Shown here in pieces: positions 8,743-20,231 of a DNA stretch of 64,000 nucleotides. A model generated the notes under the pieces. The model was not told where the DNA came from. It saw nothing but the letters and a program-made list of their open reading frames with translations, and did not search any database. The position numbers and the translations under genes are program-made. The first letter of the stretch is position 1; every line of letters starts with the position of its first letter. Origin of the DNA: Octopus vulgaris (lineage: Eukaryota); contig OX597834.1 of the NCBI GenBank assembly GCA_951406725.2, forward strand, positions 17,484,001 to 17,548,000, in the 5' to 3' direction.

Positions 8743-9399
8743 TCCACCCAGTGATACTGTTTTGTGTTCAAATACCTTCGGGCGGGAATTTTATCTTCCC
8801 TCCCACCAGGGTTGAAAAATTAAGCAACTATGCTTGAGCCAATGAGTGAACCTTTATGCAGATGCTTGACTTGCTAGTAATAATAGCTAAAGCTCCCTCA
8901 AATCACACCCTATTATCTTTCAAAGTAACGGACACATTGGATAACATCATGCCTGCATTATGTCTGGATAAAAGGCGGCCAACTTTGTCTTTCATCTTTT
9001 TAATAAAATAAGTACCATTTGAGCACTGGGGTCGATGTAACCGACTCCCCCCCACTCCTCAAAATTGCTGGCCTTGTGCCAGAATTTTATAAGAAAATTA
9101 AGAGAAAAGCCTGAGGAATTTATTTTAAGATATAGGAAAGTAACTTATGGAAGACATTAACTCAAATTATCCTGATATGAATAATTCTTTGGAACTGAAT
9201 TTAATCTGTGGTTTTCTGCCTGTGACCTACTGTTACCAACACTATATTGAAGTACTGTTGGGATTTAAGAAAATCTAATTTAAGATAGAAAAAAAAAATA
9301 AAAAGAAAAGAAAAAGATTGAATTTCATCTGCAAATAACCTGAGAAATTCTTATCTGCAAGTGGGAAGTATTTGTGTGTGTGTGTATGTGTGTGTGTGT

Positions 9400-9913
9400 G
9401 TGTGTATATATGTACACAGACACACTGACATACTAAGTATTTATGTGTATACACTAATATGTATTTATGTGTATGCAATATGTATGAATGCATATACACA
9501 ATAATATGTGTTTGTTTCTATACACTGAGAAATATTGTATACTAATATGCATTTGTGTGTGTGTATGTAGTAAGAAATATTTATGTATATATACTTGTAT
9601 GTATTTGTATGTATTCAGCAAGATATATTTATGTGTATATACTTGCATTTATTTATGTGTATACACTAATATATATATATATGTATGTGAATAAAGTAAG
9701 ATGTATTTATGTGTATACATTAACATGTAGGCATAGGAGTGGCTGTGTGGTAAGTAGCTTGCTCACAAACCACATGGTTCTGGGTTCAGTCCCACTGCAT
9801 GGCACCTTGGGCAAGTGTCTTCTACTATAGTCTCAGGCCGACCAAAGCCTTGTGAGTGGATTTGGTAGACCGAAACTGAAAAGAAGCCCGTTGTATATAT
9901 ATATATATGTATG

Positions 9914-9966
<53 letters not shown>

Positions 9967-10199
9967 TATTAGGAATAAATCCAAATTTACAGGAAAAATC
10001 AGATTTAGGATTGAATCCAATTTTATAGTAAAATATTATATTATATTAATTAGAGACAAAACCACTATATGCAAATCAAACAAAGAAGATTAAGCCAATA
10101 CATAAAAAGTTTTATATAAATTAAATATAATTAAAACTTTTTATGTATTTTAAGTCTTTCTTTGTTTGATTTGCATAATAGTGGTTTTGTCTCTAATTA

Positions 10200-10231
<32 letters not shown>

Positions 10232-10665
10232 ATGTATGTGTGTGTATATGTTTGTGTATCTGTGTTTGTCTCCCCCAACATCACTTGACAACCAATGCTG
10301 GTATGTTTATGTCCCTGTAACTTAGCGGTTCAGCAAAATAGACCGATTGAATAAGTACTAGGCTTACAAAGAATAAGTCCTTGGGTTGATTTGGTCGACT
10401 AAAGGCAGTGCTCCAGCATGGCCGCAGTCAAATGACTGAAACAAGTAAAAGTGCATGTATTTATGTGTATACACTCGCATTTATGTGTATACGCAAATAT
10501 ATATATTTATGTGTATAAAATAGGTTGTATTTGTGTGTATACATTAACATGTATTTATGTGTATACACTCGCATTTATTTATGTGTCTACACTAATATAT
10601 ATATATATATATACTTATGTGTATAAAGTAAGATGTATTTATGTGTATACATTAGTATGTATATA
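9400..10665. repeat. Degenerate ~22-bp AT-rich minisatellite (gtatttatgtgtatacact) split by a SINE A insertion
   Basis: Unit recurs over 9430-9727 and resumes over 10454-10660. Confidence 0.75.
9729..10453 (+). mobile_element. SINE family A, full length, with a foldback insert in its (TA)n
   Basis: Head at 9729, 3' half 10260-10452, insert 9961-10208. Confidence 0.9.
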
Positions 10666-11090
10666 TATTATGATTTTTTTTATGGGGATATAGTTTCAAC
10701 ATTCCTGTAAAATATTTTTGGGTCCTGACTCTTAATTAAAAACATTTGGGATCGACAGCCAATGAATCCCAGTATCAACAACTGAGTTTGGTTTCATTCA
10801 GCTTTAATAAATTCCGGATCATGTATTCTCACTTAACTAGATTTTATAATATATCTGAAAATAATTTTTTGTTTTTGCTGCGTTCATGGATTCCCATGAC
10901 TCTCTGTCATCATCCAATTCCATTATTATGAAATTTGAATTGGGAGTTTGAGTCATAGGGACTCTTTCATTAGCTGATTGCACAACCATGGATGCCACCC
11001 CTATGGAGTTGCAGTTACTCTCTTAATAGAGTTTGGTGATCCTGACAATTGGTCTTCTAGGATTGCTTCACCCAGCATCGATGTAAGAAG

Positions 11091-11091
11091 A

Positions 11092-11125
<34 letters not shown>

Positions 11126-11135
11126 ATACTAATAC

Positions 11136-11166
<31 letters not shown>
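11091..11166. repeat. (TAC)n/(TAA)n microsatellite
   Basis: Direct reading. Confidence 0.95.
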
Positions 11167-11586
11167 TGATGTAAGTGACCCCACTGATAAAAATATATCT
11201 GTAAAGGAATTTGACAAATTTAGTAAATATAAAGACCTGGAAATTGAAGTACAAACGATGTGGCATCTTAAAGCAAAAGCTGTTCCTGTTATTGTAGGTG
11301 CTGTAGGTATGATAAAAAAAGTGATGTCAGAAAAATCTAGACAACATCCCAGGAGAACCATGTCTCAGAGAAATCCAAAAGATTGTGCTGATGAGTACTG
11401 CCACATTTTTAGAAAAATCCTATCAACTTAAATGTTTGTGTTGTATTACATGGAGTTATTTTGCTACTGCCCCGGCCACTTCACCTCCCCAAGCTTTCAG
11501 TTATACTGTAACATCCTTCATTTGCCCTAGGGTGTTGGGTGTGTCTTGGCAAGTGAATTCAACAAACATGCATATTAAAAGTAAAT
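11165..11586 (+). pseudogene. 3' fragment of an R4/Dong-clade non-LTR retrotransposon (restriction-like endonuclease C-terminus plus 3' UTR)
   Basis: Translates IDVSDPTDKNISVKEFDKFSKYKDLEIEVQTMWHLKAKAVPVIVGAVGMIKK, frameshift, LDNIPGEPCLREIQKIVLMSTA. This fits the IDVxxP...KxxKYxDL...PVxVGAxG pattern of R4/Dong RLE domains. Flanked by TAA/CAA repeats. Confidence 0.85.
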
Positions 11587-11617
11587 AACAACAACAACAA
11601 CAATAATAACAATAATA

Positions 11618-11832
11618 ATCCTTTCTACTATTGGCACAAGGCCTGAAATTTGTGGGGAGAGGGTAAGTTGATCACATCGACCCCAGTGTTTCACTGGTAC
11701 TTATTTTATTGCCCCCGAAAGGATGAAAGGCAAAGTCAACCTCGGTGGAATTTGAACTTAAAGCGTAAAGATGGACAAAATGCTGCTAAGCATTTTGTCT
11801 GGCGTGTTAACAATTCTGCCAGCTTGCTACCT

Positions 11833-11834
<2 letters not shown>
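11618..11834 (-). mobile_element. SINE family B (B1 tail)
   Basis: Reverse head and body between (TAA)n tracts. Confidence 0.85.
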
Positions 11835-11862
<28 letters not shown>

Positions 11863-11865
<3 letters not shown>

Positions 11866-12182
11866 GCAGCATTATTAAATCTCTAGTTTTTCGAAATCAG
11901 TGACGGAAGTTACTAGAAAACCACATATATTTGCATACAGGCTTTCCCTTTCATCGTGATCTGGTGATTACCGCCCGTTGACAAGAGGCAACAACCTCGA
12001 AACCGCGGTCTGGTGCGTATCACTTAGGCTTACGAGAAAGGGATGGCCTCCCTTTGCAAATACCATAAGGGCACAGATAGTGTGCCTAAAGCCAGCTGGA
12101 GACGATGATCTCCTGGGGCTAAAAGCTACAGTAACACCCACCCTTTGTGGTTAGCCATATTGAGATGGCTGTTATACTTTAC
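11863..12182 (+). mobile_element. Non-coding, highly structured hammerhead-bearing element inserted in (TAA)n
   Basis: Unique 320-bp segment bounded by (TAA)n on both sides; multiple hairpins; contains the motif below. Confidence 0.6.
11939..12049 (+). ncRNA. Type I hammerhead ribozyme, U3-A8 core variant, extended stem I
   Basis: Core TTGACAA (11978-84), stem II GAGG-caacaa-CCTC, GAAA (11999-12002), palindromic stem III ACCGCGGT, cleavage triplet GTC ending 12010. Stem I pairs 11945-11977 with 12011-12043 with single-nt bulges. Confidence 0.75.
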
Positions 12183-12206
12183 AATAATAATAATAATAAT
12201 AATAAT

Positions 12207-12345
12207 TCTTTCTATTATATGCACAAGGCCTGAAATTTTGGGGGTTTTGTATAGTTGATTACATTGGACCCAGTACTTGTTCTGTAGACCTTGAAAGGAT
12301 GAAAGCAAATTGACTTTGGTAGAATTTGAACTTAGAACATGAAGC
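12207..12345 (-). mobile_element. SINE family B, decayed
   Basis: gcacaaggcctgaaattttgg...aaaggatgaaagc...aatttgaactt. Confidence 0.7.
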
Positions 12346-12514
12346 CAGAAAAAAGTAGCGAACACTTTCTATCTCTGAAATTCCCTCACAAGACATTGGT
12401 TGGCCTGGAGCTACTATAGTAGAAAACGCACTTGTCCAAGGTGCTGTACAGTAGGAATGAACCCAAAATCATGTGGTTTCATAAGGGAGCTTCTTAACTG
12501 CCACACAGCTGTTA

Positions 12515-12850
12515 AAATCATTTTGTAACATGTAAGTCTTTCAACAAGATGTTCAAACTGAATGAAATAATCGCTCACTGCTGTCTCCCGTGGACTTCGA
12601 TATTGTTCAAATGCCACAAATGATTTATATGCAATAAATATTAATTGGTTTAGATCTAATCTCTACCATCAGCATTTAAGATGGTAATCCATTTTGCAGT
12701 ACAGCCTCTGTGGTTTTTTTTTTTTCTCCTTTAAACATTCAGAGCACAATTGGGGAGCTGTCTTTATGAGTTATAAGCTGATCAATAATTTCCAAATTTG
12801 CTCTTCTTTCCTTGAGGGTTCTTCATTTTCAGGTTTTAGCTGAGGTGGCA
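12515..12850 (-). pseudogene. Possible Copia-type LTR retrotransposon gag relic
   Basis: Minus strand gives ...KSFVAFEQYRSPRETAVSDYFIQFEHLVERLTCYKMIL, preceded by broken EQIWKLL..KTAP..EAVL..LNADG pieces. Resembles the invertebrate Copia gag FExxxR..S..DY..xFE.L...L pattern. Confidence 0.4.
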
Positions 12851-13164
12851 CAAGTAATTTCAAATCCATTTTGTATTTATTAATCATTGTTCTGCTACCA
12901 ACGTTGAGCAAAAACTGACAACACTTGCAAACATAGGAAAAGCAACATACTGTATTTGATCATATACCGGATGTGCCCCTAGGGTGGCAAGCTAGCAGAA
13001 TTGTTGGCATGCCAGGTTAAATGCTTAGCAGTATTTTGTCTCTTTTTACATTCTGAGTTCAAATTCTGCTGGGTTTGACTTTGTTTTTCATCCTTTTGGG
13101 GGTTGTTAAAATAAGTACCAGTTGTGTACTGGGATTCATTTTATATCTCATTAGTGCATGCTAA

Positions 13165-13490
13165 AACTTCTGGAACTCTGTTGGCTATGGCAGTGAGGGT
13201 TCTAGTTGATCTGATTAATAGAACAACCTGATCATGAGATTAACGTGCAACTGACTGAGCACTTGACTGATATGTGTACCCTTAACATAGTCCTCAGAGA
13301 GTTTCAAAGTGACTCACAGAATGTGGACAAGGCTGGCCCTTAGAATTACAGGTACAACTTATATTTGTCAGCAGAGTGAACTGGAACAATGTGAAATAAA
13401 GTGTCTTGTTCAAGGACATTACACGCTGCCAGAAATTGAACTCACGGTCTTACGACTGTGAGCCTAACCACTAAGCCACATGGCTTCACA
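13165..13490 (-). mobile_element. SINE family C (CORE-like) variant
   Basis: Minus head gtgaagccatgtggcttagtggttagg...gagttcaattt, gtccttgaacaagacactttatttcac; homologous to 56510-56817. Confidence 0.8.
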
Positions 13491-13834
13491 TGCCATGGTT
13501 ACAGATGATAGCAGTAGTTTGCTAACTGAACTGGTTGGTCCCGGTCATTGACAATCTGTTGTCTGTTTAACTGCTCAGCATCTACTGATATTCACCATTG
13601 ATTCAATAAGATCCGTTTGCTGAAATAGTTCACATCCACCATACTGTATCCCAAGATTTCAATGTGCCCTGCTTTGGGCAGTTACTTTCCGTTTAACCCA
13701 TTGCTGGGATCCTGATGGGTGCTTCTACTTCAGGGCAGAGCAAACCTGAAAACAATAGGAACTAAGAGGGAGTTCCACACACTTCAATCCCTGGAACTAC
13801 GGAGCCAGTGCTCCGCTACTAGATGCAGTTTAAA

Positions 13835-14267
13835 GGCATGGCTGTGTGGTAAGTAGCGTACTTCCCAACCACATGGTTCTGGGTTCAGTCCCACTTTGTG
13901 GCACCTTGGACAAGTGTCTTCTGTTATAGCCTCAGGCTAACAAAAGCCTTGTGAGTGAGTTTAGTTGACAGAAACTGAAAGAAGCTCATCGTATATGTGC
14001 ATATATATATATATATATATATATGTTTGTCTATGTTTGTGTGTCTTTGTGTCTGTGTTTGTTCCTACATCACTGCTTGACAACTGGTGTTGGTGTGTTT
14101 ATGTCCCTGTATCTTAGTGGTTTGGCAAAAGAGGCCAATAGAATAAGTAAAAAAAATATAATATATAGGGGTCGATTCCTTTGACTAAAAATTCTTCCAG
14201 GTGGTGCCCCAGCATGGTTGCAGTCTAAAGATTGAAACAAATAAAAAAAAAATAAAAGATAAAAGAT
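13835..14267 (+). mobile_element. SINE family A, full length
   Basis: Head, central (TA)n, 3' half and aaagat tail. Confidence 0.9.
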
Positions 14268-14460
14268 AGGTAGTTACCCAGGACATGAACCCTAAAAACA
14301 CAAAGCTCTTAAATGCTGCAACATTACATGAATTTGCTCTGTGGCTTTGTTAGTCAAGCAACTAAAATGAACAAGTTATATATTCTCAGCTGATACATGA
14401 CCGTAATATAATGCCAATTTATTTTTTTGTTCTAATGTTGAAAAATGTGACTATATTAAT

Positions 14461-14692
14461 TTAACTCTGTCGATACCAACCCACCTGAGACCGTCAGCGG
14501 TTCTATGATACAAACTTGCTATTTTAAAGTGATCTCAATTATAATTGTTCATCAAAATTTCATGTTAATTTATGTTTGAAACACCAGCTTAATTAAGACA
14601 AATTTATTTTACTACATTCTTAATTATTCTCAAGCTTAATTGAAACAAAAGCAGTGCATTTCCACAAGAATACGGTAACAAAAATTTTTTAA
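14461..14692. mobile_element. piggyBac-type MITE (family E), decayed
   Basis: ttaactctgtcgatacc ... tacggtaacaaaa. Confidence 0.6.
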
Positions 14693-15248
14693 ATTTATTT
14701 CTGTTACAGTTTTGTTTAACAGAATACAGTAAAAGCAGAAACTGCACACAATAACGTATTTCTTACTTGCTTAAAAATCCTGATTTAATATTAAACTTGG
14801 ATAATTAGCATCATGGAGTCTGTTTTATATTAGTTTTAAACTGATTTGTTTAACCGAGAAAGGTAGTAATAATAATAATAATAATAATAATAAAAGCTCA
14901 ATTATTGTATGAAAAGTTTAATACATCAACATAGAAAATGGAATGACACAGCTGTTAATTAGCATCTAATAAAAATGAAGTTTGTTCATTTACCATTGCT
15001 GTTTATTTTAATTATTGTTATTTGTTTAATCTTAACATATATTGGATCGCAAATATAAACCAAATATTGAATTAACCTTAAACACCCAGTTGTTCCTACA
15101 AGTTTAATGAATAATAGTTACTATAGTAAGAGAACAAGTACAGGAATCACTGATTTGGAAAAAGCATAACTTGCAAAAATTTAAAATATATTAGATCTTG
15201 GAATTATTTTAGAGTACGCTTTGAACAATGAGGTATTCATAAAGGTTT

Positions 15249-19476: not shown

Positions 19477-19737
19477 GTCGAGAATTCAGTGCAGGTAGTC
19501 AGGACATGTTGTTAAAATGCAAAATAATCACATTCTGAAAATTCTTTTGTATGACCAACAAACGGAGGGTTTCCACAGTAAAGGAAGACTCCCTCCTTTA
19601 GGTATTTAAGGACAAATTACAACAATCACTAAAACCTTTACAGCTTAATGTAACCTGTTGGGAATGTTATTGCCTTGATCAATCAAAGTGGTGTAAAATG
19701 TGTCATGATGCATCTAAGCAGTTTGAGTTCAAGAAGC
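19477..19737 (+). pseudogene. RTE-clade LINE ORF C-terminal relic
   Basis: QCR*SGHVVKMQNNHILKILLYDQQTEG..KGR / FKDKLQQSLK...WE...DQSKW...FE matches the RTE pattern RWxGHVxRM..P.xLLYG...GRP...KD.LK...WE..A.DR..W. Confidence 0.75.
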
Positions 19738-19739
19738 TG

Positions 19740-20231
19740 GGCTGTGTGGTAAGTAGCTTGCTTACCAACCACATGGTTCCGGGTTCAGTCCCACTGCGTG
19801 GCACCTTGGGCAAGTGTCATCTACTATAGCCTCGGGCCGACCAAAGCCTTGTGAGTGGATTTGGTAGACGGAAACTGAAAGAAGCCCGTCGTATATATGT
19901 ATGTATTAGAAGAAATGAGGTAATCAGAAGATCAGATGGTTTATATTTACAGATATTTATTTATATATTACATTTTTTACATATATATCATATCACTGAG
20001 ATCATTAGCGCTTTCTTCCATATATATATGTATGTGTGTGTATGTCCCCCCAACATCGCTTGACAACCGATGCTGGTGTGTTTACGTCCCCGTAACTTAG
20101 CGGTTCGGCAAAAATGGACCGATGTAATAAGTACTAGGCTTACAAAGAATAAGTCCTGGGGTCGATTTGGTCGACTAAAGGCGGTGCTCCAGCATGGCCA
20201 CAGTCAAATGACTGAAACATGTAAAAGAGTA
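19740..20231 (+). mobile_element. SINE family A with a ~115-bp insert in its (TA)n
   Basis: Near-consensus halves; foreign DNA 19905-20020. Confidence 0.9.

Follow-up and report, generated by a model that had tools for sequence, protein, structure and literature searches.

A truncated copy of a high-copy 355-bp hammerhead repeat, a likely non-LTR retrozyme, in the Octopus vulgaris genome

Layout of the locus and its hammerhead motif

The window, which is the whole 64,000-nucleotide stretch of Octopus vulgaris DNA analyzed in this study (contig OX597834.1, positions 17,484,001 to 17,548,000), contained at positions 11092-12350 one TAA-type array system with four nested insertions: a LINE relic, a SINE-like repeat, a retrozyme-like element, and a second SINE-like repeat. 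The relic (11167..11583, + strand), recognized through its RT relatives, was a 3' fragment of a Dong-like LINE, comprising the endonuclease end (11168-11431) and the 3' UTR, and it carried a separate TAA/CAA tail. An abundant short interspersed repeat, which we take to be SINE-like, occupied 11620..11833 (strand not assigned) and had 26 further matches in the window; a second, shorter copy at about 12207-12350 was identified by sequence matches in the window. Scanning of 60 out of 147 candidate frames for a host gene yielded no Pfam match. Possible short exons with acceptor and donor sites were seen on the + strand at 19602-19748 (no Pfam match) and just past the window end (L238, ~560-640).

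The element itself (11866-12182) was a two-armed, 5'-truncated insertion with only one hammerhead. The direct arm (11885..12182, + strand) covered unit positions 57-355, ended at the fixed 3' end of the family, and was 94% identical to the tandem unit of L023. The inverted arm (11866..11884, - strand) was a piece of the ~49-nt tail (unit 33-49 plus 2 nt) and matched unit 33-49 of L019 at 17/17 nt. The same layout, an inverted tail piece with a direct arm, was observed in L009. The insertion lay between a (TAA)n array (11834..11865, + strand) and an (AAT)n array (12183..12206, + strand), both part of the host site and outside the element, the right one masking any target duplication; TAA flanks were rare in the family. 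An initial annotation made from the letters of this DNA had described a 320-bp unit flanked by (TAA)n; the flanking arrays were correct, but the true unit was 355 bp and the window copy was a truncated form of it. The longest ATG-started frame in the copy was 32 aa and the longest stop-free stretch was 64 aa, in agreement with the reported absence of an ORF. Because the copy has only one hammerhead, no monomer release is possible, and it is likely a dead-end, inert insertion.

A type I hammerhead motif was located at 11972..12017 (+ strand) by sequence and script check and was further identified by covariation between sister families. The core (11978-11984) ran from U3 at 11978 through U4, G5, A6, and C7 to A8 at 11983 and A9 at 11984. 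Stem II (11985-11998) consisted of four Watson-Crick pairs (11985-11988/11995-11998) closing an A-rich, 6-nt loop 2, the GAAA of the hammerhead lay at 11999-12002, and helix III (12002-12009) was a perfect 8-nt palindrome. Stem I (11972-11977/12011-12017) contained one G-U pair and one bulged U. The predicted cut site GUC (G16.2-U16.1-C17) was at 12008-12010, with the predicted cut after C17 at 12010. The motif therefore combined a 3-8 pair, G12-A13-A14, A15.1-U16.1, an NUH site, and three helices, and the U3-A8 type I hammerhead, its GUC triplet, and all 11 stem pairs listed in the initial annotation were recovered at their positions. The full hammerhead descriptor gave 1 match in the 64-kb window and 0 in 300 dinucleotide shuffles.

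By fold and stem coordinates, stem I was prolonged by an extended bulged rod (11928..12062, + strand), and three small hairpins (12070-12086, 12098-12113, and 12153-12170; together 12070..12170, + strand) were identified by fold and stem check in the 3' part of the unit; similar 3' hairpins were predicted in sister units. The 320 nt had an MFE of -110.7 kcal/mol (z -5.6), and equal stability was reached in 0 of 100 shuffles. Helix III and the active core were both absent from the single-strand MFE structure. Helix III brought no energy gain as a monomer (-8.4 vs. -8.6 kcal/mol), and its self-duplex was calculated at -14.1 kcal/mol. The palindromic helix III is conserved in a manner that would fit dimer formation. 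A search of window positions 9000-15000 against Rfam detected no hammerhead family at E<=10, and the retrozyme family was absent from the best 30 genome matches of Rfam Hammerhead_1. Library searches thus do miss the U3-A8 motif, as had been predicted for strict searches.

The repeat family and its insertion anatomy

The unit, defined from natural tandem copies, was 355 bp long and protein-free. In the 2.8-Gb genome, a first look gave 2834 candidates, a figure that should not be read as a copy number; the 40 candidates that were scored contained 41 near-full-length matches, and the 40 other near-full-length matches were 93-98% identical to the window copy. Exact intact U3-A8 cores numbered 199 genome-wide, compared with 0 in the reversed control, so that the further genomic copies foreseen by the initial annotation form an abundant family. 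Two hammerheads in tandem were found in L019, L023, and L157 and, as adjacent intact cores 355 bp apart, in C9. The longest array, in L157, held about 2.7 units, and long arrays were not seen. Units were 350-360 bp in size, had a GC content of 40-45%, and were highly self-paired (circular folds of four natural units, z -4.6 to -6.7). They fall within the 170-400 nt of metazoan non-LTR retrozymes, and like these they are non-coding, self-paired, and equipped with one type I hammerhead. Tandem hammerheads are a property of the family and not of the window copy, and copies are dispersed in high number with signs of retrotransposition. The unit was present at 85% or higher in contigs from four runs, each run having a different organism code. 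Assembled contigs also cover the unit and include the head-to-tail joint in 3 of 4 runs, but this joint is uninformative on expression or circles because genomic tandems give an identical one.

Insertion anatomy was surveyed in 76 loci after 14 repeat fetches had been dropped; L143 and L162 were counted separately, although they appear to be duplicates of a single locus. The right end was the unit end in 48 loci, the tail end in 26, and another position in 2. An inverted 5' arm was present in 43/76 loci, of which 35 had a tail at exactly one end and none at both; the tail was ~49 nt long, optional, and limited to one end. Partial tandems occurred in 35/76 loci. Target duplications of 7-17 nt were found at 21 of the 51 non-microsatellite loci, against a mean of 0.63 (maximum 3) in shuffled pairings. 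The right flank was TA in 21 of the 76 loci, TAA in 2, and CA in 1, while the other 52 loci were flanked by ordinary DNA. Extensions beyond unit position 1 at the 5' side ran into the 3' end of the preceding unit and not into an ORF. Tandem copies were thus observed, TAA flanks were exceptional, and no ORF was attached to the unit. Taken together, the dispersed non-coding unit, its tandems, its scars resembling those of Penelope-like elements (PLEs), and the lack of an attached ORF support the proposed retrozyme-like, non-autonomous retroelement.

In a sample biased to long copies, 5' truncation points fell within 5 nt of the predicted cut in 2/79 cases, and 91/128 pieces read through it. The lack of a 5'-end pile-up and the read-through are compatible with a circle, but just as well with RNA that stays uncut and a ribozyme that is slow or silent. 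Divergence between repeats of one insertion was 4.2%, compared with 4.6-5.2% for unrelated copies. In L152 and L159, adjacent pieces carried cores of different subfamilies.

A small retrozyme insertion was also seen inside a non-autonomous repeat at L147:2400-2812 (+) and in L011 (reverse, ~470-880), which we take to be Helitron-like from its 3' hairpin followed by CTAG, in TA. The retrozyme fragment consisted of an inverted tail piece and unit 293-355, with a 12-bp duplication, and versions of the host repeat with ~81% identity occurred in L210, L027, L172, and L125. The junction of this repeat corresponded to a loose end at window position 12121 in 4/4 runs, so the fragment was apparently multiplied as part of the host repeat.

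Sister families and the U3-A8 core

Sister families A2, B, and D shared the whole unit with family A at 88%, 70%, and 57% identity, respectively, and a distant sister family, C, was detected at E 3e-16. The core was intact in 36/52 family A pieces. With some pieces interrupted by junctions, the 3-8 pair was U-A in 47/52 pieces of A and C-G in 32/37 of A2, 25/28 of B, and 11/16 of D. Helix III was self-complementary in 48/52, 33/37, 20/28, and 14/16 pieces of A, A2, B, and D, although the 8-mers differed between families. In 28 rows hand-picked near seeds from 133 pieces, the window copy, which has one extra base in stem I, being left out, 10 of 15 pairs changed on both sides, and 89.5% of pairing cells were paired compared with at most 47% in slid controls; these values reflect about four related lineages with few independent changes, and not 28 events. 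Helices I, II, and III and the 3-8 pair covaried, so the covariation of stem I, stem II, and the 3-8 pair anticipated earlier was found between families A, A2, B, and D.

In a tree calculated after removal of the core and stem II columns, whose bootstrap had not settled, 37 U3-A8 rows grouped as a clade (100/95) nested in A+A2 (99/97), B and D falling outside it. A further five rows with U3-A8 or U3-G8 were unresolved among A2. Because the U3-A8 clade nests inside A+A2, U3-A8 is, on the sequence evidence, a derived, lineage-wide compensatory change. The earlier interpretation as compensation rather than decay was upheld by this fixed pair switch on a core-free tree. CpG decay as a source of U3-A8 was rejected, since position 3 does not belong to a CpG and the lineage is fixed for this pair. 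The 10.1-11.1 pair was present only in family A and absent in A2, B, and D, and the U3-A8 lineage had gained it as G-C; L144 combined U3-A8 with the old unpaired 10.1-11.1, and L158 had both changes. A2-type cores gave 168 exact matches, and part of A2 had C4.

Among the 100 rows listed of the 199 exact cores, helix III occurred in three pairing forms (60, 27, and 13 rows) and never in the non-pairing form, which was found in 1 of 52 family A pieces. CpG decay is unlikely as the sole source of helix III variation, because the basal palindrome is CpG-free and the single variant that cannot pair hardly occurs; some later copies with helix III variants may be decay products.

Mobilization and alternative explanations

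Autonomous PLEs with RT and GIY-YIG domains were present in the genome as young copies, several of them with intact 781-aa RT-endonuclease frames, in a sample of 150 scored out of 6136 GIY-YIG candidates and 30 plus 14 fetched loci. The PLE proteins had a CxxC linker motif of Neptune/Nematis type. Terminal repeats were found in PLE loci L092 and L097; they carried a U3-A8 hammerhead motif, a palindromic helix III, TA arrays at ends or flanks, and an optional ~41-nt tail, and another PLE had a C4 core. The young PLE family at L092 and L094-L098 (G000 C16, C4, C5, C6, and C7) had frames of 479 aa and 781 aa (RT + GIY-YIG), and its copies were 98-99.6% identical, with TA flanks and the U3-A8 motif in the terminal repeat.

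Against the 44 PLE loci, the unit showed no homology beyond the hammerhead core by blastn and nhmmer, the only hits being sister-family copies. In tblastn with two PLE proteins, copies of families A, A2, B, and D were all free of a fused ORF, and the 30 Rfam hammerhead loci gave no match; the unit thus has no RT + GIY-YIG ORF between repeats, as an autonomous PLE would. PLE hits in L054, L099/L105, and L130 were rejected as fused ORFs and represent separate insertions. The unit homologue 1.3 kb downstream of the PLE ORF in L099 was rejected as a partner, being a separate insertion of sister family B. Since the insertion scars are PLE-like, we infer a PLE as the carrier class, and PLE machinery likely mobilizes the retrozyme family.

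Dispersed copies, head-to-tail junctions, a fixed 3' end, inverted arms, target duplications, and hammerhead covariation led us to conclude, with good confidence, that the element represents a truncated member of a high-copy U3-A8 hammerhead family with a non-coding unit of 355 bp, likely a non-LTR retrozyme and likely copied by PLE RT and GIY-YIG endonuclease. In the proposed cycle, tandem copies would be transcribed, two hammerheads would pair via the palindromic helix III and cut after C17, and the monomers would be ligated into ~355-nt circles. The PLE enzyme would make a staggered cut in TA/AT-rich DNA, and reverse transcription would be primed from each side, once from the unit end and once, opposite, from the tail end, passing the ribozyme site because the template would be circular or uncut. 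Repeats within one insertion were barely closer than unrelated copies, a difference too small to point to copying round a single circle. A further point against the explanation is that the ~49-nt tail is longer than the 30-40 bp reported for PLE tails.

With the 10.1-11.1 pair missing from families A2, B, and D and C4 occurring in part of A2, an efficient ribozyme may be dispensable for spread. It could be argued that the family is a non-autonomous PLE derivative, a bare terminal repeat with its tail, for which tandem transcripts that are linear and uncut serve as template, with a slow or vestigial hammerhead and no part for circles. The absence of a 5' pile-up at the cut, the frequent read-through, the short arrays, the weak cores of sister families, and the weak in vitro activity described for PLE hammerheads (PMC4209133) all agree with such a template. 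Nevertheless, covariation of stems I, II, and III and of the 3-8 pair extends over four lineages, a 10.1-11.1 G-C pair arose in the U3-A8 lineage, and a non-pairing helix III is rare. This points to selection for the fold in source elements and makes the explanation rather improbable. Even less probable, and indeed very unlikely, is that the unit is the terminal repeat of an unsampled autonomous PLE, present in the window as a 5'-truncated copy. In favor of this, PLE insertions are mostly reduced to a single terminal repeat (Li et al., 10.64898/2026.07.22.740005) and our PLE sample covered 150 of 6136 GIY-YIG candidates, but the 5' extensions reach the preceding unit and never an ORF, and no ORF fused to the four families was seen with the two PLE proteins.

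The initial annotation had suggested that the neighboring Dong-like LINE could supply a TAA-targeting machinery, or that the element is itself the structured end of a TAA-targeting LINE. The relic ~280 bp away is real and is a fragment of an abundant LINE whose full-length relatives carry an RT ORF of 1303 aa and end in (TAA)n, and the window copy does sit in a TAA array. The label rests on an RT match, the TAA tails, and an endonuclease motif that we assume to assign the relic to Dong-like LINEs; the 87-aa relic was not recognized by Pfam. As a carrier, this LINE is highly improbable: the unit profile, compared with 14 relic loci and with two full-length elements that have 1303-aa frames, showed no homology (best E 0.23), with no shared 3' end or (TAA)n tail, and TAA right flanks were confined to two of the 76 copies. 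The one-sided tail, inversions, and partial tandems are PLE features, and TAA arrays also house SINE-like repeats, so co-location needs no common machinery. The idea of a structured LINE end likewise failed, as no ORF was attached and the unit repeats head to tail. Full-length Dong-like copies with intact 1303-aa frames were seen in L235 and L236, and L235 had a second fragment inside its TAA tail.

Natural U3-A8 cores, animal retrozymes, and a PLE link are already in print. Animal non-LTR retrozymes include mussel units of 350-390 bp, and PLE mobilization has been proposed for them (Cervera and de la Pena 2020, PMC7229834). The octopus family resembles them in unit size, GC content, self-pairing, one type I hammerhead per unit, head-to-tail junctions, and PLE co-occurrence; it differs in its U3-A8 core and in occurring mostly as monomers or partial dimers with inverted arms rather than long arrays. 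The main text of that report does not mention octopus or cephalopods, and our literature search found no report on cephalopod retrozymes, although its supplement and bioRxiv supplements may list some. Terminal-repeat hammerheads of the Schistosoma PLE Cercyon also have the U3-A8 variant (Cervera and De la Pena 2014, PMC4209133), and PLE terminal-repeat hammerheads share with the octopus unit the U3-A8 covariation, the palindromic helix III, mostly single dispersed motifs, and proposed dimer activity. Unlike them, the octopus unit has no attached ORF, and it has a 4-bp canonical helix II and a long helix I, compared with 7-8 bp and a short one in minimal PLE hammerheads (PMC4209133). C3-G8 covaries to U3-A8 in several natural hammerheads shown to be active in vitro, and repeat-type hammerheads have a palindromic stem III (Perreault et al. 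2011, PMC3088659); in octopus, by comparison, a single retroelement lineage and its sister subfamilies allow the switch to be traced.

Hallmarks described for PLEs are partial tandems, 5' copies in inverted orientation, and a tail of 30-40 bp on one side (Craig et al., 10.1101/2021.04.23.441226), and the octopus insertions show the partial tandems, the inverted 5' copy, the one-end tail, and a TA-microsatellite bias of endonuclease-bearing PLEs, but the unit has no RT or endonuclease and a longer tail. In vertebrates, retrozymes have been proposed to be non-autonomous PLE derivatives of PLE origin (10.64898/2026.07.22.740005). In that study, 24 of 57 Xenopus families matched a PLE terminal repeat, whereas the octopus unit matched none sampled here, and 8 of 9 Xenopus retrozyme dimers were without in vitro cleavage. 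Although each ingredient was previously published and the window copy is likely inert, the family would extend animal retrozymes to the octopus genome, and it indicates that Rfam and strict CUGANGA searches overlook whole high-copy families. The insertion scars offer direct genomic support for the proposed mobilization of retrozymes by PLE enzymes, and the subfamily series provides natural variants for testing what catalytic activity such elements need.

A more ambitious reading, which we put forward tentatively as an unlikely one, is that a single line of retrozymes spread successively with a C3-G8 core, a C4 variant, and a U3-A8 core, restored its 10.1-11.1 pair, and changed the helix III palindrome via a wobble intermediate, so that the family would be a dated natural experiment in ribozyme core evolution, converging on the core types of autonomous PLEs in the same genome. 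In its boldest form, the palindromic helix III would pair two RNA templates, which would explain two-armed insertions with arms from different subfamilies.

The C4 core (C at position 4) had spread in subfamily A2 (L136-L164), in an unrelated hammerhead family (L197, L198, L206, L207, L217, and L218), and in a PLE terminal repeat (L099:4800-4845). A hammerhead family with stem II extended by ~60 nt, matched by Rfam Hammerhead_1, occurred in L191, L192, L195, L204, and L210. Family C was represented at L091:3737-4290 by a 360-bp tandem with a U3-A8 core, and its 6-nt helix III palindrome equals that of the 781-aa PLE, making family C a candidate link between the retrozymes and this PLE. Adjoining it, L091:1268-3052 contained three tandem 594-bp units, 99% identical, with inverted pieces.
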